The position numbers and the translations under genes are program-made. Below, piece by piece: positions 1 to 43,910 of a stretch of 64,000 bases of DNA. A model generated the notes under the pieces. The model did not search any database and was not told the DNA's origin. It was given only the letters and a program-made list of their open reading frames with translations. Source of the stretch: an uncultured Anaerolineales bacterium (GTDB lineage Bacteria > Chloroflexota > Anaerolineae > B4-G1 > SLSP01). Each line of letters starts with the position of its first letter. The first letter of the stretch is position 1. Location: positions 22,956 through 86,955 of the forward strand of contig CAZDDI010000010.1 of NCBI GenBank assembly GCA_964504195.1, read 5' to 3'.

Positions 1-2446
1 CCGTCTCTTCGTGATCCAGGCGGGCGACGGATGCGACACGGTCGCTGCCTTTGAGATCCATCATGCGGACACCCTGCGTGTAGCGTCCCATCTTGGGGAT
101 GTCGGCGACGCGGGTGCGGAGCATGATGCCGCTCTCGGAGATCATCGTCACCTCGTCGCTATCCTGCACCACCCGCGCGGATGTGACCGGGCCGGTGCGT
201 TCTATGACTTTGTACGCGCGCATCCCCTTGCCGCCGCGTCCCTGCGTGCCGAACTCGGCCAGCTCGGTGCAGCGTCCATAGCCGCTCACGGTAGCGATGA
301 AGACATAGCTGGCCTCTTTCACCACTTCCATGCTGGTCACATGATCGCCGGCCCGGAGTTGAATCGCCCGCACGCCACCCGCGATGCGCCCGGTGGGCCG
401 CACCTGGCTCTCGTTGAAGCGGATGGCCTGCCCTTGCTCTGTAACGAGCAACAAATCATCCTGGCCCTGCGTCAGGCGCACCCAGTTCAGCGCGTCCCCC
501 TCATCCAACCGCAACGCGATCAGCCCGCTGGGACGCACCGCGTTGTACTCGCTGAGCGCCACGCGCTTGATCTGCCCGTTGCGGGTCGCCATCGTCAGAT
601 AGCGCGCATCGGCAAAATCTGGCACGGCCACCACCGCCGTCACCCGCTCGGAGGCATCCAGCGCCAGAATCCCGGCGATCAGCGAGCCTTTGGCCGTGCG
701 ATCGGCTTCGGGGATCTGGTAGACCTTTTCCTGGTACACCTTGCCGCTATCGGTGAAGAAGAGCAGTGTGTCGAGCGTGCTGGCGGAGAGCAGGTAGATG
801 ATTTCGTCCTCGTCGCGGGTCGCCATGCCGATGATACCCTTACCGCCGCGGCCCTGCGCGCGGTAGGTGGCCGCCGGCACGCGCTTGATGTAGCCGCGCT
901 GGGTGATGGTGATGAGCACCCGCTCCTGGTGAACGAAGTCCATTTCATTGAAATCGCCATTGGCCTGCGGGATGATTTGCGTGCGCCGCCGGTCGGCGTA
1001 CTTCTCGCGCAGCGCGGCCAGATCTTCGCGGATCACGCCGCGCTGGCGCACCGGCGAGGCGAGCAGATCTTCGAGATAGGCGATTTGCTTGAGCAGCGCT
1101 TCGTATTCATCCAGTAACTTCTGGCGCTCCAGCCCGGTGAGGCGCCGGAGCTGCATGTCCAAAATCGCCTGCGCCTGGAGCTCGGTTAGCCCGAAGCACT
1201 CCACGAGCCGCACGCGGGCGGTATCCACGTCCGGCGATTCGCGGATGGTTTTGATAACTGCGTCGAGGTGATCCAGAGCAATGAGCAGCCCTTCGACGAT
1301 GTGGGCGCGCTCGCGAGCCTTCATCAGCTCGTAGCGCGAGCGGCGCACGATGATATCAATGCGATGCTCCAGGAAGATCAGCAACAGCCGCTTGAGCGGC
1401 AACACACGCGGGACGCCCTCCACCAGCGAGAGCAATTGCACGCCGAAGGTGCCTTGCAGCGGGGTATGCTTGTAGAGCCGGTTGAGCGCCTTCTGCGGTT
1501 GCGCGCCGCGTTTGAGCTCCACGATGATGCTCATGCCACGCTTGTCGGACTCGTCACGCAAATCGCTGATCTCATCCAATTTGCCTGAACGCGCCAGTTC
1601 GGCAATGCGCTCCAGTAGGCTAGATTTGTTGACCTGATAGGGAATTTCGGTGATGACGATGCGGTGGCGACTGCCGCGCATCTCTTCGATATTGGCGACG
1701 GCGCGCACGGTGAGCTTGCCGCGCCCCGTAGCATACGCCTGAGCGATGCCTTCCTTGCCCAGAATCAACCCGCCAGTGGGGAAATCCGGCCCCTGGATGA
1801 ATTCCATCAGCCGATCCACGCCGATCTCTTCTTGCTGCTCCCAGTTGTCGAGCAGATAGAGCAGCGCATCGCTAATCTCGCCCAGATTATGCGGGGGGAT
1901 ATTAGTCGCCATCCCCACCGCAATGCCCGATGCGCCGTTGACGAGCAGGTTGGGCAGGCGGGCGGGCAGCACTTGTGGCTCTTGCAGCGAGCCATCGAAG
2001 TTGTCCACCCAATCTACGGTATCCTTCTCGATGTCCACGAGCATTTCCATGGCAATAGGCGAGAGGCGGGCCTCGGTGTACCGCATCGCCGCCGGGGAAT
2101 CGCCATCAATGGAGCCGAAGTTACCCTGCCCATCTACCAGCATATAGCGCACGGAGAAATCCTGCGCCAGCCGCGCCATCGCCTCGTACACAGCTGAATC
2201 GCCGTGCGGGTGGTACTTACCCAGCACCTCACCGACGATACGGGCGGATTTCTTGTAGGGCGTAGAGGCCCGAATGCCCATATCGTACATGGCGTAGAGG
2301 ATGCGGCGTTGCACGGGCTTGAGGCCATCGCGTGCATCGGGCAGCGCGCGCGCCACAATCACGCTCATGGCGTAATCGAGATACGCTGTGCGCATCTCGC
2401 GTTCGATGTCTACGGTTTGAATGTTGCCGATGTCGTTTTCCGTCAC
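1..2446 (-). CDS. gyrA: DNA gyrase subunit A, N-terminal about 815 aa; the C-terminal end runs off the window. GTG start at 2446.
   Basis: The minus-strand translation begins [53 protein letters not shown]...[23 protein letters not shown]. This carries the GyrA active-site region and the QRDR-like motif, followed by GyrA C-terminal beta-pinwheel repeats. The plus-strand ORFs 11..1117 and 1664..2197 are antisense artefacts. Confidence 0.93.
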
Positions 2447-2552
2447 TGTCTGTCACCTTCTTGACTGTGTAACGCGCGCGGCGTTACGGGATAGCTAGGG
2501 CGTAATTCTTGTTCTATACGTTCTTGCAATAACATTTTTATCAATAGAGCTT

Positions 2553-2700
2553 ATCAGGAATTTTCTACCGTACATTTCTCAGCCGCACGCACTTTTAGCC
2601 ACGAATTAACACGAATTCTACGAATTTTCTTATTGCTTTCGTGCTAATTCGAGTAAATTCGTGGCAAAATTCTGAAGTGTACGGTAGCAAAATCAGGAAT
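2553..2700. mobile_element. MITE-like element. The 9-bp direct repeat atcaggaat (2553-2561 and 2692-2700) flanks imperfect 13/14-bp terminal inverted repeats (tttctaccgtaca ... tgtacggtagcaaa). The AT-rich core holds three direct CACGAATT repeats and two inverted AATTCGTG repeats at about 10-bp phasing.
   Basis: Seen directly in the sequence between gyrA and the PLD gene. Confidence 0.55.
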
Positions 2701-2942
2701 AGCACTTGAAAGTAGCGGGAGAGTTTTTTACCACAGAGATCACGGAGTTTTTTTATTTTGGTAAATTCTCTGTGCCCTCCGTGATGAATCTGACATACTT
2801 TCCACAGCGGCGTTTTATTTCCGCTAATGTCTATTGGACACATTGAGCCACGTCGTATCTGCGACACGCTGCACCTTCGATAAAAAATACCCGGTAATGC
2901 ACGTTGCCAGCAGGCCACGCATAGCAGTGGCGGGGGCAATGA

Positions 2943-5900
2943 TTAGCGCGCACTATAGCGCAACACGACCGGCAAGTAAATGGAATACCCCGTGATGAAC
3001 TGCCGCGCCGGCGTCCAAATGTTTTGCAGCGCGGGGTCTGTAAATCCAACCCGCCAGTAGTAGCTCCCGATGTGCGGGACAGCGAATGGATATGCGTAAT
3101 CCGAGACCAGGGTATCCACCAACGGCGTGAGGAATTGTCCGTTAGCCGCTACTTGCACCCGGTAACTCGTGGGCGTCAACGGCTGGGTACTGCTGATGGG
3201 ATGTACCCACTGCCACTGTAAAGCCGGGGCGCGATTCACCGTGGCGCCCGCGGCCGGGGCTTGCAAAGCCACATAGCCCGTTGGCGCAAGCGGGTACGCG
3301 CGCCCTAGCGCACCGATATTGCTGCGGATCATCCCGTCGCCGTCATCATCCGTATCGTAAGGCGTGGTGGCGGCCGGGTCGCCAGCATCCAGCGCCGGGG
3401 AATCTGCGGCCAGAGTGTAGTCGCCGCTCGCGGCAGCGTGAAAGCGCGAATCGAGGTTGATAAGGTTGTGTGAAGCGGTGGGCGTGAACGGGGTCGCGCT
3501 GACCAACCAGTCTTCCGGGCATACGCCGCCAACAGCCCGGATGCATTGATCGAACAAGTTGTAAGTATACTGCACGCCGCCATCATCCGGCGTGTTGAGC
3601 CGCACCGGCGCTACGGTTTGCCCGGAGAACAGATTGTTGCGTATCAGCCGCGCCCCGCCAGCAGCCCCGCCGCCGCTCAAATCTATCCCGACCGTCCCGC
3701 CCACGAAAGTGTTGTTTTCCAGCGTATACGTTAGCGGCGTACCCGCAGCCACATTGATGTTGACCCCGCCCTGGGCATTATCGGCAAAGAGCACGCCGCC
3801 GATATAGAGATTATCCAAAGGCGTTCCCGAACCAGCGCCGATTTCTAGCGCGTAGCCCTGGCTGTTGGTCAGCGCCAGCCCCACGAGGGTGACATTCCCT
3901 GAAGTGATGCGCACAGCAGGGCCAGGCCCAGTCGCCGCCAGCGTGGTGCTCAAGCCGCTACCACCCACCAGCGTCAGGGGTTTATCTATGATGAGGGTGG
4001 CTGAGGTCGAGAACGCCGCGTCATCCAACCAGATAACGGCGCCCGGTGCCGCTTGGGCTACGGCGGCGGACAGATCAGCTCCCGCCAATAGCCAGGTAGG
4101 GGTGATAGTCCGTAGAGAAGTCCATTCTTGCTCGAAATAAGTCTGGTAGGACTGAATGGCGGGATGCGTTCCCATCAGGCCCCCATCCAGGCCCAGATTG
4201 TACTCAGCCAGATCAACCCCACCGCTGCCCCAGGCGGCATGATCCCAATTTTGGCTCCCCACAATCAAGAACTGTCCATCAATGGCGAGGGCCTTCGCGT
4301 GCGTATTGCCACTTGCGCCGGTGGCATACATCTGCACTTGAAACTTATCCGCAGCACTGCCGAGAGCTTTCCACAAACGCAAGGTGACCCGGCGATTGCC
4401 ATCTAGTGTCAACCTATGGATATCCTCACCCGATCCCATCAACAGCCGCACGGTGACGTTGCGATCACGGATGGCCGTTTCTAAAGCGGGTTCGAATGGC
4501 AATTTTGTTCCGAATACATCGCTGGTGAACGAGGTTTGTGTCAAATCAATGGTGGCGCTGGCGGCGTTCAAAGCCGCGAGGATGGCATTATCCGAAGTCT
4601 TGTCTCGGCGATCCCGGTAGAGGGAGAACACGGCGGTGCCGGTGGCGACCTGGTGGCTCCAGATTTGTGGCGCATGAGCAATCGCGTAGGGATAGGGCAG
4701 GTGCGGATCGAACGCCGGCCCTGGGACGGCAGACCGGATGCGAGCGTCCCGCCAGAGCGTGTCGAACGCCGTCAACGCCTCGAAACCGGCCATGCCGCGC
4801 ACCTGCAATCCCATATCTGGGCGTACCTCGTCCTCAATTTCAGTATAATAGTTATGAACATTGTAACCGCCGGCAATGACGGTACGCCCATCCACCACCA
4901 ACAGCTTCGCGTGGCTATACTGGAAAGACCAAAACTCATTCCGAAAAGTCGCCACTTCGATCTGCCAGGTGATGGTATCCGCCCCCGCCTGAAATTCTTG
5001 ATACACCGGAATCCCAACCGTGGTGCTGGATGCCGTATTGGTGATGGTGGACAGCGCTTGCAATACCTCGTTGTGTGTCTGGCCCAATATCATGCCCGTG
5101 CCGCCAATCAGGATGCGCACACGCATGCCTTCCAGGTACTGTTGGGGATTCTGTGCCACCCGCCGGTAGAGTTCCTTGAGGCCACTGTTGTAAGGGTCAG
5201 TTCCTTGCAAGATGATGTTGCCAGCATGTATATCTTTCTTATCAGATATATGCCAACTCAGCGTTGCCAGGTTCACCTCATACTGCGCATTGGCAATCGC
5301 CGCGGCCATCCTTGCAAAGGCAGCCTGCCCTGAGTTCATGTCCTGAATCATGGTCAAATCCTGATACTGGTTGCTGCAGAAGGCCGGGGTTTCCAGTGCG
5401 CCTAACACCGCCTGCCCAATCGGCGACAAATCACCTTCGAATGCGCTGCAATCCAGGTCTGCCCATAGCGGGCCGAAAACGGCCGTGGAACTATAAGTGA
5501 TGTAGCCGATTTTGCCCGAGGTAAACGCGGCATCCCGAATATCGAAGACCGGCGTGGCGGCCCCATCCAGATATACCCGGATCCGGGCGCCACGCAGCAC
5601 GATTTTGACATGATGGGTCTCGGTTGGATCATACCCGGAGACTGCCGCTAACACCTGGGGCATACCGAGCACACTGCGCCCGATGGCAAAGACCACCTGC
5701 CCATTGATCCGGGCAAACCCGACGCCATAGCCGTTGTTGGCATCTTGGTAGCGAAACACAATCCCGCCGGGCACGACCCCATTGATATCCGAGGTGAACC
5801 GCATACACCCGGCGATCACGCCATCGCCAATATCACGCGCGGTCTCATAGGCAATATTGCGCCCAACGTTGTTGCCTTGCTGATGCAACTCGCTTGCGGT

Positions 5901-6125
5901 AGAGATCAGCCAATCCCCACTGGTGATAGCCCAGGGATAGCGCGAATGGGGCAAAACGCGCGCCAGGCCCCACGGTTCAGCAAAAAGCCTCCCGGCGCCT
6001 TCTGGAATCTCACAATTGGGTGGGGGATCAACGCGCGCAGGGGACACCGCCCCCGGCTGCGCCAACACCGGCGTAGATGATAAAAACGAGCACAAGCACA
6101 AGATGAGTATGAATTTGTATAACAT
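2943..6125 (-). CDS. Secreted multidomain phospholipase D-family (HKD) protein. It has a signal peptide, a LamG/ConA-like domain, two HKD motifs, parallel beta-helix repeats and a C-terminal Ig-like region.
   Basis: N-terminal MLYKFILILCLCSFLSSTPVLAQP. Two HxKxxxxD motifs: HAKLLVVDGRTVIAGGYN and HAKALAIDGQFLIVGSQN. Gly/Asn-rich beta-helix-like repeats such as NNTFVGGTVGIDLSGGG. Confidence 0.8.
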   Translation of the reverse strand: MLYKFILILCLCSFLSSTPVLAQPGAVSPARVDPPPNCEIPEGAGRLFAEPWGLARVLPHSRYPWAITSGDWLISTASELHQQGNNVGRNIAYETARDIGDGVIAGCMRFTSDINGVVPGGIVFRYQDANNGYGVGFARINGQVVFAIGRSVLGMPQVLAAVSGYDPTETHHVKIVLRGARIRVYLDGAATPVFDIRDAAFTSGKIGYITYSSTAVFGPLWADLDCSAFEGDLSPIGQAVLGALETPAFCSNQYQDLTMIQDMNSGQAAFARMAAAIANAQYEVNLATLSWHISDKKDIHAGNIILQGTDPYNSGLKELYRRVAQNPQQYLEGMRVRILIGGTGMILGQTHNEVLQALSTITNTASSTTVGIPVYQEFQAGADTITWQIEVATFRNEFWSFQYSHAKLLVVDGRTVIAGGYNVHNYYTEIEDEVRPDMGLQVRGMAGFEALTAFDTLWRDARIRSAVPGPAFDPHLPYPYAIAHAPQIWSHQVATGTAVFSLYRDRRDKTSDNAILAALNAASATIDLTQTSFTSDVFGTKLPFEPALETAIRDRNVTVRLLMGSGEDIHRLTLDGNRRVTLRLWKALGSAADKFQVQMYATGASGNTHAKALAIDGQFLIVGSQNWDHAAWGSGGVDLAEYNLGLDGGLMGTHPAIQSYQTYFEQEWTSLRTITPTWLLAGADLSAAVAQAAPGAVIWLDDAAFSTSATLIIDKPLTLVGGSGLSTTLAATGPGPAVRITSGNVTLVGLALTNSQGYALEIGAGSGTPLDNLYIGGVLFADNAQGGVNINVAAGTPLTYTLENNTFVGGTVGIDLSGGGAAGGARLIRNNLFSGQTVAPVRLNTPDDGGVQYTYNLFDQCIRAVGGVCPEDWLVSATPFTPTASHNLINLDSRFHAAASGDYTLAADSPALDAGDPAATTPYDTDDDGDGMIRSNIGALGRAYPLAPTGYVALQAPAAGATVNRAPALQWQWVHPISSTQPLTPTSYRVQVAANGQFLTPLVDTLVSDYAYPFAVPHIGSYYWRVGFTDPALQNIWTPARQFITGYSIYLPVVLRYSAR

Positions 6126-7027: not shown

Positions 7028-7816
7028 TTACCGGTAGGCTTCCGGCAGGGTGAACTTCAGCACTGGTTGCGGCACCGGGTAGTTGGTTCCAGGCAAGTAT
7101 TCACCATACTGCGAGAAAATTAACAATTCCAATCCCCACACGCTACCAGGCGTCAGGATTAGCCCTTGATTATCAGGCAACCAGGCGCAGGGATAAAAAC
7201 TGCTCAAGGTTTGACCCTGCCCCGGAACGTACCCCAGACCATAATCTAATAGATTTTCCCCACTCGCAGCATCGTAGATACCATCGAACCGGGCAATCCA
7301 CCGCCCATCTGGCGAGAATAGCCCCTCCCAAAAATCATAATCCATCCCACATTCAGCAAGCGTCACTACACTTCCAGGCGAAGTTGTAATGACTTCTCGG
7401 GAATCCAGATTGAACCACCAATCCACGCGCTCTCCGGATTCGCGTTGCCAACCCGTTGCATACTGCACATGAAGTGGTCGAGTTGTCGTGATCTTGCCTG
7501 TAGCGATCTCCAACCAATAGCCGCCTTCCAGATAATGATCTACATGTAAATACTGCTTATCCGAAGTAAAGTAAGTAGGCCGATGCGATACTCGCACCAG
7601 ATTCTCGCACGCGGGCACGAGGATTTCCACATTCGCCGGATAGAGCGTCTGCTCGAAGTCCGGCGGCGCATCGCAGAGCCAGAGATAGCGCGCCACCGGG
7701 TTATCGCGCCCCCACCAGCCCTGGTAATAACTCCACCGCGCGCCGTTATATATGACAATGACACCCACAATGAAAATAGCTAAGGCTATCAAACATCCGC
7801 TAAGTTTTTTAGGCAT
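7028..7816 (-). CDS. Membrane-anchored hypothetical protein, paralog B of the tandem pair. The likely start is the MPKKLS ATG at 7816; the ORF stays open up to 7906.
   Basis: Same architecture as 6149..6955. About 190 nt in the N-terminal region and about 130 nt at the 3' end are nearly identical to paralog A at the nucleotide level, while the middle has diverged. Confidence 0.7.
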   Translation of the reverse strand: MPKKLSGCLIALAIFIVGVIVIYNGARWSYYQGWWGRDNPVARYLWLCDAPPDFEQTLYPANVEILVPACENLVRVSHRPTYFTSDKQYLHVDHYLEGGYWLEIATGKITTTRPLHVQYATGWQRESGERVDWWFNLDSREVITTSPGSVVTLAECGMDYDFWEGLFSPDGRWIARFDGIYDAASGENLLDYGLGYVPGQGQTLSSFYPCAWLPDNQGLILTPGSVWGLELLIFSQYGEYLPGTNYPVPQPVLKFTLPEAYR

Positions 7817-7937
7817 ACCTATCTCTATTGCTTGGTTCAGGCGCAACGATCCATGAATAAGCGAGCTACATACTCGGTTGAGTCGTGCCTGGCCCAAAAC
7901 TCGCACTCCGCGTCTTCAGTTTCCAAAAAAAATATCC

Positions 7938-8832
7938 TTATTGAGCCAATGCTGAGTCAAGAAAAAGTAGTATCTTCCTTTTGTACTCTGCTTCGTTCCC
8001 CACAATAGGATTGATATGAGGCACCCCCTCCACAATCCAAAGTTCCTTTATGCCATTCGCTGCCGCATACATCTGTTGCGCATGATGATGTAGGGGAAAG
8101 ATATTATCATCCGCGCTATGAATAATGAAAACCGGGCGGGGGCAACATGGTGGCTAAATCGTAACACGAGCTAACTTGTCCTATTTCAAACCCGGTTCTG
8201 AGCTCCGCCAAAGAGACAATGAGCGGGGCAAACGGCCATTTGGGAAATATTGAAAAAACCTCAAAACTATCATCAATTGCTTGCGAGAGGCTGCTGTAAC
8301 TGCTTTGAATAACGATGGCTTTCACACGGTCATCTGTGGCAGCAGCCCGAACTGCCGCAGCTGCACCCAATGAATGTCCCACAACTGCTATTTGCTCTAC
8401 TTCCGGCAACACAAGAGCATAATCTATGGTCGCTGCTACATCTAAGGCCTCACTATATCCGTAAGTCATTAGGTTGCCTTCGCTGTTGCCGTGACCTCGC
8501 AAATCAATCAGCAATACATGGTATCCGGCCTCAGATAAAAGACGTGCTTGCGGCAATAAGTATGTCCGATTAGCATGAATTCCATGTACCAGGACAATTG
8601 CATCGGGGCGTGTTCCGGCGATGTACCACCCTGATATTTTGAGACCATCAGCCGTTGTTAAAGTGATATCCTGGTAGGAGAGTCCAACAGGTATGCCAAT
8701 GTTTTGATTTCTTACTGGCGTAGTCAGATAAACTGCTTGAATGTACGAAACGCCCAGGGTTAGCAAGATAACAATTGAGCAGATGGCAGATAAAACGTAC
8801 AAGACCAGTTTCAAATGAAAACGGCGTAACAT
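7938..8832 (-). pseudogene. Alpha/beta-hydrolase-fold protein, membrane-anchored, broken by a frameshift near 8115-8125.
   Basis: The 238-aa ORF (8116..8832) has a transmembrane N-terminus and a GHSLGAAAA nucleophile elbow, but lacks the Asp/His region. The adjacent frame continues RPVFIIHSADDNIFPLHHHAQQMYAAANGIKELWIVEGVPHINPIVGNEAEYKRKILLFLDSALAQ*, the expected Asp and His part, ending at 7938. The break sits at a G-run (ccgggcgggggc). Confidence 0.7.
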
Positions 8833-9064
8833 ACAAGCAATTGCTCGCTGGTGCTTAGGCAGTTCCAGGATTTAAATCGTCCCAAAATCACCGGAATTCG
8901 TAGGGGAACAAGCAGTTTTTGGGATGATTATTTTCCTGGAATCGCCTTATCTTCAGTGACACTTATTTTGCGCCGCCTAACGCCAAATTTCATCGGGCGA
9001 AAAAGGCGAGCGCAGCTGAACACGGGGGAAGAGCAAGCCATTGTTGGGCATAATTCTCGTGAGA

Positions 9065-9727
9065 TTATACCCGCACCAAACTACCGCTTACGGCCTTTTG
9101 AATATTCCCCAAATATTCTATGTGTTCACCATTGACAATGATCCCATCCCCATCCGGGCAACCGTAAATCACCCGCTGATAGTTCTGTGAATATTCTTCT
9201 AATACATTCGTCGCAGCCTCCACGTCATTAAGATGCGGTAAAAACGCAAAATCCACCAATCCCAATGCGCTGCTATCGGTCATCTCCTCGCCTGTCAGGG
9301 GCGCATCGCCACATAAACGAGCCGTGCCGATCTCCGGTGTCATCAAGATCGCACCGGCACTTGTTCCAATCAATGTTCCTCCATTCGCTACATACTCTTG
9401 TAACGGGACGATCAAGCCTCTGACTCGTAACCAATAGAGAAAATGATACGTATTTCCCCCTGAGAGATGAATCGCATCGCACCTCAATAACGAATGGAAC
9501 ATGCTTGGTTCATAGTTCACATCAATCTCAAAATACACCGACAAATTGAGTCCTAGTGTTTCATAATATACTTGTTTTTGCTTAAACCAGATTCGTTCGG
9601 GATCACTTGATGATGGTATATAGCCGATTATTGGATTTTGTTTGCCTATCAGAGAGGCTAATCGGCGGTCAATCTTTGCATTTTCTGGGATCACTTGATC
9701 ACTATAGAGTACGAGTTTACGTATCAT
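9065..9727 (-). CDS. Peptidase family S51 (dipeptidase E-like).
   Basis: HLSGGNTYHF and GTSAGAILM match the PepE GGNTF and SAGA serine-nucleophile motifs. Confidence 0.7.
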   Translation of the reverse strand: MIRKLVLYSDQVIPENAKIDRRLASLIGKQNPIIGYIPSSSDPERIWFKQKQVYYETLGLNLSVYFEIDVNYEPSMFHSLLRCDAIHLSGGNTYHFLYWLRVRGLIVPLQEYVANGGTLIGTSAGAILMTPEIGTARLCGDAPLTGEEMTDSSALGLVDFAFLPHLNDVEAATNVLEEYSQNYQRVIYGCPDGDGIIVNGEHIEYLGNIQKAVSGSLVRV

Positions 9728-10074
9728 TTCAGTTCTTTCTCTTGAGGCATCCTAACATCTCGAAATGTTGGTAACGAAGTCTCATCATCTCCTGTCCTGA
9801 TGGCATATCATGTTTTGGTATATTTGACCCACTGGGTTGATTCGGAGATATAAGACACAGATTTTACGGATAAAACGGATTTTTCCGGTTCTTATCCGTA
9901 AAATCCAAGCAAATCCATGTCTTATCAGCATTCTGACGAACCGGTAGCAACTTGGATTAAGCTAGCCGTTTTTGCCTGAACGGCAATGGTCTAGCGCCTC
10001 ATTATACCCCAAACAGAACAGAGGGCGAATCAGCGGGAGAACTTGCAGACAACGTAGTTTGTCCCCCACAAGCT

Positions 10075-42305: not shown

Positions 42306-42414
42306 CAACTGCTACACCGGTGGACTTTTCCACCGCAGAGAATGCAAAAGAAAGAAGCCGCTGTGATTTTTGCACCCTTCGTAGTGAAAAGTCTCCTTGT
42401 GGTATAATCCTATT

Positions 42415-42548
42415 CAATGTCATTACGTTTAGGACATAGACTTGGCAGGTTTCAAAGCCTTGAGTTTACAAGAAATCGTTATTCACCGGTAAAATCCCAC
42501 CCAATCCAATTTGGGCGAAACCTGCCAGGTCTTAACTTAATGACATTG
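42415..42548 (+). mobile_element. Complete MITE-like element of 134 bp. The TIR pair is caatgtcatta / taatgacattg. It is flanked by the 9-bp direct repeat aatcctatt (42406-42414 and 42550-42558). Internally a 16-bp arm pair can form a long hairpin: agacttggcaggtttc ... gaaacctgccaggtct.
   Basis: Seen directly. It sits 25 bp upstream of the LCP paralog 2 start codon. Confidence 0.7.
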
Positions 42549-42572
42549 CAATCCTATTGAGTGTAATCAGCT

Positions 42573-43910
42573 ATGACGAATAGAGCAACTGCCAATAAAT
42601 TGATCCGCTTCGGTATGATACTAATTTACTTGATCAGCACCGTAAGCGCCAGCACACTGGTATTTTTCCAAGTGCGCGAACTCGTATCTGCCTCGGAAAT
42701 TCTACCGGACATCACGCTCGGCAACGAAGCTATAGAAAGCCCAAACATCGTTTACGAAGAAGGCCAACCCTTGCCTATCTGGACCGGCACCGAGCGCCTC
42801 ACGGTGTTAGTATTGGGCATAGATCAACGTGAGACAGAGGAAGGCCCTTGGCGTACAGACACGATGATGTTGCTCACCCTCGACCCGGTCACGTTGCAGG
42901 CGGGGGTGCTCTCGATTCCGCGCGACCTTTGGGTACGCATCCCCGGCTACACCGAGAACCGCATCAATACCGCGCACTTTATCGGCGATGCCTACAACCA
43001 TCCCGGCAGCGGCACGGCGCTCGCTATCGAGACGGTCGAATACAATCTTGGCATCTCCATTGATTACTATGTGCGCTTCAATTTCAATGGGTTTGTGAAT
43101 GTCATTAACGAAATTGGCGGCATTGAAATCTATGTCGAAGAACGCGTTGATGATACCAAATATCCTACACCTGATCTTGGCACAGAGCATCTCATCATCG
43201 AGCCGGGCTGGCACCATTTCGATGGCGAAATGGCCCTCAAGTATGCGCGCACGCGCTATTCCAGCCGGGGCGACTTCGACCGCGCACGGCGACAACAGCA
43301 AGTAATGTCTGCTGTGCTGGAGCAAGTGACCAAGCCCGGCAACCTGCCACGTCTGGCGAGCCGCGCGCCCACGCTCTATGCCACGCTCTCCGATGCAGTG
43401 CAGGTAGGGCCTGCTCTGCGGATGGATCAGATGATCGCTTTGGCTGCGCTGGCCGTTAAAGTGGATCGTTCACAGATTCGCTTTGGCGTCATTGACGAGA
43501 ACTGCACCTTACCACGCGAGACACCCGATCATCAGCAGATTCTGGTGCCCTTGCGCGATGAAATCCGCGCCGTACGTGATTATGTCTTTGGGGTGAATGG
43601 GCCTGAGACCGAGGAAGGCACAACGATCACGCTCTCTGTGCTGAACGGGACAGGCCGCGCGGGATTGGCTGGCACAACCCGCGATTATCTGGTGGCGCAG
43701 GGCTTTTATGTAGGTACGCACAGCAACGCCGACCGGCAAGATTATGAGAATTCGCTCATCATTCTGAACCGCCCGCATCCCACTGTGGCGCTACGCCTAT
43801 TGGAACTGCTAGGATTACCACAATCGGCGGTAGTCAACGGTGATAACCGCAGTGCGGTATACGACATCGTCATCATTCTGGGCGCAGATTACACCGGCCC
43901 GCCGGAATAG
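42573..43910 (+). CDS. LCP family protein, paralog 2.
   Basis: LVLGIDQRETEEGPWRTDTMMLLTLDP...LSIPRDLWVRIPGYTENRINTAH. About 55% identical to paralog 1. Confidence 0.85.
   Translation: MTNRATANKLIRFGMILIYLISTVSASTLVFFQVRELVSASEILPDITLGNEAIESPNIVYEEGQPLPIWTGTERLTVLVLGIDQRETEEGPWRTDTMMLLTLDPVTLQAGVLSIPRDLWVRIPGYTENRINTAHFIGDAYNHPGSGTALAIETVEYNLGISIDYYVRFNFNGFVNVINEIGGIEIYVEERVDDTKYPTPDLGTEHLIIEPGWHHFDGEMALKYARTRYSSRGDFDRARRQQQVMSAVLEQVTKPGNLPRLASRAPTLYATLSDAVQVGPALRMDQMIALAALAVKVDRSQIRFGVIDENCTLPRETPDHQQILVPLRDEIRAVRDYVFGVNGPETEEGTTITLSVLNGTGRAGLAGTTRDYLVAQGFYVGTHSNADRQDYENSLIILNRPHPTVALRLLELLGLPQSAVVNGDNRSAVYDIVIILGADYTGPPE

Follow-up and report, generated by a model that had tools for sequence, protein, structure and literature searches.

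A gyrA-upstream element of an uncultured Anaerolineae bacterium as a very probable MITE of a large, mainly Anaerolineae family with hairpin interiors

The DNA analysed here is a stretch of 64 kb (hereafter, the window, meaning the whole stretch at its full length) from an uncultured Anaerolineae (Chloroflexota) bacterium. Among the GyrA matches with a named source, the best are Anaerolineae MAGs, and a base-for-base identical locus is found on contigs of ENA ERZ27252296, JGI 3300033177 and Logan SRR10872584. All contigs found were identical, with no strain variants of the locus among them. At the left end of the window lies gyrA, whose product is recognised by Pfam as DNA_topoisoIV (E = 3.9e-160), plus DNA_gyraseA_C. 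Between gyrA and the PLD-like gene upstream of it there is a non-coding gap of 496 bp (2447-2942), AT-rich as originally described: the GC content of 2501-3000 is 43%, versus around 60% in the adjoining 500-bp stretches. The following features can be differentiated:

1 to 2446, minus strand: gyrA coding sequence, with its GTG start codon at 2446 and its last few codons beyond the left end of the window
2553 to 2560: left target-site duplication ATCAGGAA (modal length in the family 8 bp, beginning 4 nt outside the CTACCGTACA core)
2561 to 2574, plus strand: left terminal inverted repeat TTTTCTACCGTACA (family consensus TTCTCTACCGTACA, from end base counts in 97 copies)
2575 to 2596: 22-nt subterminal spacer, kept within the subfamily (alignment of the window copy, L224, L203 and L046)
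within 2597 to 2665: hairpin core, left arm AGCCACGAATT-aa-CACGAATT-c-tACGAATT, followed by the loop
within 2597 to 2665: hairpin core, right arm ctTTCGTG-ct-AATTCGaG-ta-AATTCGTGGC
2666 to 2677: 12-nt subterminal spacer (subfamily alignment)
2678 to 2691, minus strand: right terminal inverted repeat TGTACGGTAGCAAA
2692 to 2699: right target-site duplication ATCAGGAA
2730 to 2786: second hairpin, with no terminal repeats, made of CACAGAG/CACGGAG units
2943 to 6125, minus strand: gene of 1060 aa with a PLD-like domain, upstream of gyrA
2952 to 2980, minus strand: candidate gyrA promoter (TTTACT, 17 nt, TATAGT), containing TTGCGCTATAGT

The element at 2561-2691 is 131 bp long and is located 114 nt upstream of the gyrA start codon. 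A direct repeat, ATCAGGAAT, is perfect at 2553-2561 and 2692-2700, and the inverted repeats TTTCTACCGTACA (2562-2574) and TGTACGGTAGCAA (2678-2690) differ by one mismatch. The interior contains two sets of units: (i) direct units, with exact CACGAATT at 2600 and 2610 and tACGAATT at 2619; and (ii) inverted units, with exact AATTCGTG at 2656, AATTCGaG at 2646 and ctTTCGTG at 2636. Three units therefore converge on three, with spacings of 10 and 9 on one side and 10 and 10 on the other, and 3 of the 6 are exact. The array announced by the original prediction is present, but its count of three direct and two inverted copies has to be changed to two exact direct copies, one exact inverted copy and near-matches for the rest.

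No inverted-repeat pair found in the 64-kb window is longer than the segment 2546-2706, which folds as a single long hairpin, both as DNA (z = -5.65; 0 of 200 shuffles as good) and as RNA on the gyrA sense strand (-53.3 kcal/mol; z = -4.83; 0 of 200 shuffles as good). No second copy of the element was found in the 64-kb window, and in Rfam 15 the matches for this region of the window all fell below threshold and were to unrelated microRNA precursor models. The element carries no transposase gene: the sole ORF called across it encodes 82 aa with no Pfam match. This predicted ORF (2595-2843, minus strand) covers the second hairpin and half of the element, and is probably spurious. One contig of the locus (L003, from Logan SRR10872584) ends in the hairpin loop, at around position 2642 of the window, the kind of break to be expected at a repeat or hairpin.

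The terminal repeats were searched as CTACCGTACA-N88-118-TGTACGGTAG in species-representative genomes (one per species; 596 Gb), with at least 100 matches versus the approximately 17-34 expected by chance (uniform-random estimate). Among the matches listed, around 92 correspond, by their record titles, to Chloroflexota (mostly Anaerolineae or Anaerolineales) and 8 to Saprospiraceae; judging from accession prefixes, they are distributed over around 55 MAGs, with up to 15 matches in one MAG. These repeats are thus present at 100 places or more, in around 55 species-level genomes. One of the matches belongs to a MAG labelled Anaerolinea thermophila (L102). Regarding other sources, a scan of viral contigs gave one match only, and blastn of two family members against the PLSDB plasmids gave chance-level matches only. 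Conservation reaches 4 nt past the searched cores, to TTCT/AGAA (97 copies), and the family ends are 14 bp long, with the consensus TTCTCTACCGTACA ... TGTACGGTAGAGAA. The imperfect inverted repeats, formerly given as 13/14 bp, do exist, with their length corrected to 14 bp.

In 68 of 97 copies the ends are flanked by an identical direct repeat of 7 nt or more, versus 2.5% when the flanks are randomly re-paired, and 69 of 99 copies have, always at the same offset, an 8-bp duplication in which no more than one base differs. These 8-bp duplications are 70% AT, vary in sequence between copies and stand in a weakly palindromic context, TYTN-N8-NARA. In the window, the 9-bp direct repeat is indeed a perfect match, but a duplication length of 9 is at odds with the 8 bp of the family. 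From this comparison, the true duplication is the 8-bp ATCAGGAA, and the ninth T matches only by chance, because the element ends in a T-rich stretch.

Several dispersed, near-identical copies within one genome, a hallmark of MITEs, are found for this family in the MAG Bin_53R, which holds 11 copies, 97-100% identical, at 11 loci; 8 of them have perfect and 2 near-perfect 8-bp duplications, all of different sequence. In another MAG, C15_maxbin.104, 4 copies share 99-100% identity. The combination of 8-bp duplications with near-identical copies at different loci points to recent transposition, either cut-and-paste or copy-and-paste, with an 8-bp staggered cut of the target. The family is abundant in Anaerolineae, and was recently active in some genomes. 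As to their location, 101 copies were classified: at least 64 lie between long ORFs, 17 lie inside short mechanical ORFs and 20 are near a locus end, where no class can be assigned.

While the ends are constant, the interior is not: those of 103 copies fall into 21 clusters, and in 70 of the 103 the interior folds with a z below -3. Between the same terminal repeats, other subfamilies have analogous hairpins of CGCCAAG, ACGCGGA, ACGCAGA, GCGAAT and other unit types, and some of them carry quite different nested hairpins. In two subfamilies, one arm of the hairpin is lengthened in the longer form by a CTTCGaCAAGCTCAGgACAGGC-like mini-insert of 23-26 nt: L017 and other Bin_53R copies (129 nt) versus L076:1052-1154 (103 nt), and L004 and other C15 copies (123 nt) versus L029:983-1082 (100 nt), the two inserts being similar. 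This suggests yet another tiny mobile repeat. The copies from Saprospiraceae-labelled MAGs (L019, L022, L023, L033, L052, L058, L064 and L083) have terminal repeats extended to CTACCGTACACTTTT, different hairpin interiors and, in some cases, 8-bp duplications. They reflect either a transfer across phyla or binning contamination among filamentous bacteria with activated-sludge habitats in common.

The window copy clusters with three others: L046, from an Anaerolineae MAG, and L203 and L224, which are JGI contigs from a sister sample of the window's contig. When the four are aligned, similarity begins and ends exactly at the terminal repeats (on the left, at 2561-2574) and the flanks are unrelated. 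The duplications differ as well, being TACAGGAT in L203 and CCTCCGTA(T) in L046. The L203 copy sits away from gyrA, between divergent genes that, judged from their translations, are TetR-like and MFS-like. The GC content of L203 is 57.2%, versus 56.7% for the window, and the tetranucleotide correlation between them (r = 0.962) equals the value for 8-kb pieces of the window itself. Base composition and sample origin indicate that L203 probably, and L224 possibly, comes from the same organism as the window. If L203 does so, the source genome probably has at least two copies, around 80% identical, a degree of identity that implies an old insertion.

At the orthologous position, four gyrA relatives (74-80% GyrA identity) were compared. 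Their gaps upstream of gyrA measure 101-209 bp, one of them being cut at 157 bp by a contig end, and none contains a terminal-repeat-like sequence or the unit array; these intergenic regions are not alignable with that of the window. Two findings had been named beforehand as counting against an insertion, namely the same sequence upstream of gyrA in relatives with no duplication, and terminal repeats with no other copies. What was found is the reverse on both counts, since 4 of 4 relatives do not have the sequence and the repeats occur at many other places. An exact 21-nt query for the empty site had no match in the JGI metagenomes. Downstream, the four relatives keep the order gyrA, Schlafen/AlbA_2-domain gene, PNPOx-like gene. 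On the source contig (L001), gyrA and the Schlafen/AlbA_2-domain gene are separated by a 734-aa Beta_helix gene (7240-9444); as the two are adjacent in 4 of 4 relatives, the Beta_helix gene is a lineage-specific insertion beside gyrA.

The hairpin core also exists on its own. The JGI metagenomes were scanned for AGCCACGAATT, 30-60 nt and AATTCGTGGC, with at least 120 matches; among the matches listed, 2 have the CTACCGTACA terminal repeats, L203 and L224, and hairpins devoid of those terminal repeats are found on at least 118 metagenome contigs. These stand-alone hairpins have the same base and 1-3 further CACGAAT-like units per arm, with a spacing of 9 or 10, sometimes 8, nt. Their flanks are A/T-rich, with no direct repeats above the shuffled control, and they are usually found between co-directional genes, with a median distance of 13 nt from the preceding stop codon. 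The contigs span 32-68% GC, which indicates that they come from very different organisms. In 20 hairpin-bearing loci, no Rfam match was found. Stand-alone hairpins of the unit types carried by the other subfamilies are likewise present in the Chloroflexota loci of the family. Based on this recurrence, the CACGAATT array is the stem of a REP-like hairpin module carried by the MITE family.

Nesting is also observed. In metagenome loci L213 and L201, CACGAATT hairpins lie within the loops of other GCCAC-type hairpins, and several copies of the MITE lie in or beside small CGCAAA-, GCGAAT- or CACGGAT-type hairpins (flanks of L005, L010, L011, L027 and others). The possibility that the hairpin units form a CsrA/Rsm-type GGA-repeat RNA was weighed and discarded: GGA is absent from most unit types, and the units are base-paired.

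Upstream of gyrA, a promoter scan of 2300-3100 found a single sigma-70-like site, the TTTACT/TATAGT pair, which falls among the final codons of the PLD-like gene. The gyrA start of the four relatives is preceded, at around 40-117 nt, by a motif TTGnGGTATAAT. Its only match upstream of the window's gyrA is TTGCGCTATAGT (2963-2952, minus strand), with two mismatches; the estimated chance probability of such a 12-nt match within around 500 nt is approximately 0.06. Across the window, there are 19 matches with at most two mismatches, versus 10.1 +/- 3.2 expected (0 of 100 shuffles reach 19), for example at 10001-10012 (minus strand) and 42397-42408 (plus strand), and the two perfect copies each precede a gene and are correctly oriented towards it. 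TTGnGGTATAAT is probably the usual promoter -10 region of the lineage. No plausible promoter was found between the element and gyrA, and inspection by eye of the gyrA-side end of the element gave no plausible -35/-10 pair for an outward hybrid promoter. The picture suggested is that of a MITE within a gyrA leader of around 500 nt, downstream of the candidate promoter. If this promoter is right, the leader holds both hairpin elements, the MITE is transcribed and an essential gene tolerates a stable -53 kcal/mol hairpin in its leader. For gyrA expression, a neutral insertion is the default reading. Reading the AT-rich gap as a replication origin with DnaA boxes was also considered and rejected: over the whole window the cumulative GC skew runs monotonically, and the two hairpin elements already explain the repeats.

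Several explanations of the element have to be weighed. The original prediction had left room for an operator or iteron array, in which a transcription factor or replication protein would bind the phased CACGAATT units and control gyrA, the flanking repeats being incidental. Three direct and three inverted units with a 9-10 bp spacing, in AT-rich DNA upstream of a supercoiling-related gene, do invite such a reading. However, the same array is found within other copies of the element at unrelated loci, and the same hairpin in the at least 118 contigs of 32-68% GC described above, typically 13 nt after a stop codon. Unit spacing varies (8, 9 or 10 nt), the array is absent from the gaps of 101-209 bp in the four relatives, and CACGAATT shows no significant enrichment in the window (4 matches versus 2.0 expected). 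Since the array recurs as a hairpin module beyond gyrA, the operator or iteron reading is rejected; it is largely refuted and, by our estimate, highly improbable. Nor is there support for the idea of transcription-factor sites brought in at helical phasing. A REP/REPIN element moved by a RAYT-like (IS200/IS605-type) tyrosine transposase acting on single-stranded hairpins, instead of by a cut-and-paste DDE enzyme, is given an equally slight chance. It would agree with the long hairpin, with stand-alone cores that have no target duplication, and with a right terminal-repeat core that ends in GTAG, superficially like the GTAG-tagged REPs (PMC3733652). Nevertheless, this GTAG continues outward with 4 more conserved bases, and the copies bounded by terminal repeats have varied 8-bp duplications at a fixed offset. 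Transposition of the IS200/IS605 type is not known to produce such target duplications.

Two further proposals concern what the hairpins do and where they come from, rather than the nature of the element. One of them accepts a MITE by origin and supposes that its leader RNA hairpin is now regulatory, as a processing site, stabiliser, attenuator or small-RNA precursor. The stability of the fold on the gyrA sense strand, the probable position of the element downstream of the candidate promoter, and a second MITE-like element of the window that likewise comes directly after a perfect promoter motif speak for such co-option, as does the fact that MITEs can affect mRNA stability and carry promoters (PMC3184786). 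As opposed to this, there is no Rfam family match, the element is not kept at this locus in relatives, and no outward-facing promoter is evident at its gyrA-side end; co-option is considered unlikely. The other proposal is that the hairpin cores constitute a distinct class of hairpin repeat, selfish or functional, distributed across phyla, with stems of 2-3 tandem 8-10-nt units and the skeleton C-R-C-N-R-A (e.g., AGCCACGAATT...AATTCGTGGCT). They would spread without duplication, settle after stop codons, nest, and have repeatedly been captured by, or invaded, the Anaerolineae shell, while their units would bind a hairpin-specific protein. This is a tentative idea, to which we give the lesser chance of being right; if true, the MITE family is a modular carrier of hairpins. 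Some hairpin-specific protein may, in any case, bind the units.

The preferred reading, with a probability of about 0.9, is that 2561-2691 is a non-coding, non-autonomous MITE of a large, mainly Anaerolineae family, whose interior is a hairpin module and not an operator array. Its small size, the shared terminal repeats, the 8-bp duplications and the dispersed copies agree with the definition of MITEs in the review PMC3184786, and the MITE-like insertion first proposed on the basis of a single copy is upheld by at least 100 terminal-repeat places, 8-bp duplications and near-identical copies at different loci. According to the mechanism proposed, (i) a transposase supplied in trans would bind both terminal repeats; (ii) it would make an 8-bp staggered cut in an AT-rich target with the weakly palindromic context TYTN-N8-NARA; and (iii) gap repair would duplicate the 8 bp, here ATCAGGAA. 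The inserted interior would comprise two hairpin arms, each with three tandem 9-10-nt CACGAATT-type units, and, if downstream of the promoter, the MITE would be transcribed as a stable stem-loop inside an unusually long gyrA leader of around 500 nt. In search of the autonomous partner, around 1.5 Mb of fetched loci were inspected: they contain no terminal-repeat pair at insertion-sequence distance, no solo terminal repeats adjoining long ORFs and no transposase gene. All-against-all clustering of the 1,515 locus ORFs, followed by Pfam on eight of the largest clusters and one smaller within-genome cluster, yielded housekeeping families only.

Bacterial MITEs, such as Correia/NEMIS of Neisseria, ERIC, RUP and Nezha, are defined in PMC3184786, and the present family resembles them in that (i) it is shorter than 200 bp; (ii) terminal inverted repeats straddle a non-coding core; (iii) there are target-site duplications; and (iv) it is multi-copy, mostly intergenic and forms a long stem-loop. 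It differs from them in its constant short terminal repeats, within which the interior is swapped among at least 21 clusters of mostly hairpin modules, and in that the TTCTCTACCGTACA repeats and the host range (Anaerolineae and some Saprospiraceae) were not found in the searchable literature. Literature searches on the repeat sequences and on MITEs in Chloroflexi/Anaerolineae returned only primer coincidences and general reviews, the searchable literature being incomplete; the family appears to be undescribed. REP/REPIN/BIME elements and GTAG- or CGTC-tagged stem-loops (PMC3733652, PMC3116915, PMC2817692) are comparable with the hairpin core only. Like REPs, the stand-alone CACGAATT-type hairpins are short, intergenic, abundant and sometimes clustered, have no target duplication and usually lie just after stop codons. 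Unlike REPs, their stems consist of 2-3 tandem 8-10-nt units and they have a conserved AGCCAC...GTGGCT base instead of a GTAG or CGTC tag. The whole element of the window has, in addition, terminal repeats and a duplication, both of them absent from REPs.

Duplications of 8 bp are typical of the ISL3, IS6, IS66, IS1595 and IS256 insertion-sequence families. With them the present family would share the duplication length and short terminal inverted repeats, a likeness that serves as a lead only; their typical ends, of the GG- or GTAAGCG-type, are not known to resemble TTCTCTACCGTACA.

The most unusual aspect is the modular nature of the family, in which constant short terminal repeats surround interchangeable tandem-unit hairpins that also live independently across phyla, and these modular cores may merit a dedicated survey. 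For gyrA, a tempting but wrong regulatory reading of the upstream region is removed, and the MITE explains both the spurious 82-aa ORF and the contig break in one assembly. Anaerolineae are important in wastewater and sediment communities, and TTCTCTACCGTACA, around 100 nt, TGTACGGTAGAGAA and an 8-bp duplication provide a masking signature for their MAGs.

Other repeats of the window deserve mention. The further palindrome reported next to the element is real (2730-2786), though weak as a simple hairpin (z = -1.1), since its two unit types are in swapped order between the arms. The same swapped order is found in L065, and the same unit types in L047 and L089, all of them Anaerolineae loci; the palindrome is another stand-alone hairpin of the same general class as the core. 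An unrelated MITE-like element at 42415-42548 (flanks 42397-42558), with terminal repeats CAATGTCATTA / TAATGACATTG and a 9-bp direct repeat, AATCCTATT, immediately follows a perfect TTGTGGTATAAT promoter-like motif (42397-42408) and precedes an ORF that starts at 42573; it is probably the one that had been counted as the first MITE of the window. Finally, an AT-rich, leader-like gap at 9728-10074, downstream of a perfect promoter motif, contains at around 9850-9960 (minus strand) an ACGGAT-unit hairpin, TTTTACGGATAAGAACCGGAAAAATCCGTTTTATCCGTAAAA, preceded by TTGCTACCGG, which may represent a decayed member of the MITE family to which the gyrA-upstream element belongs.
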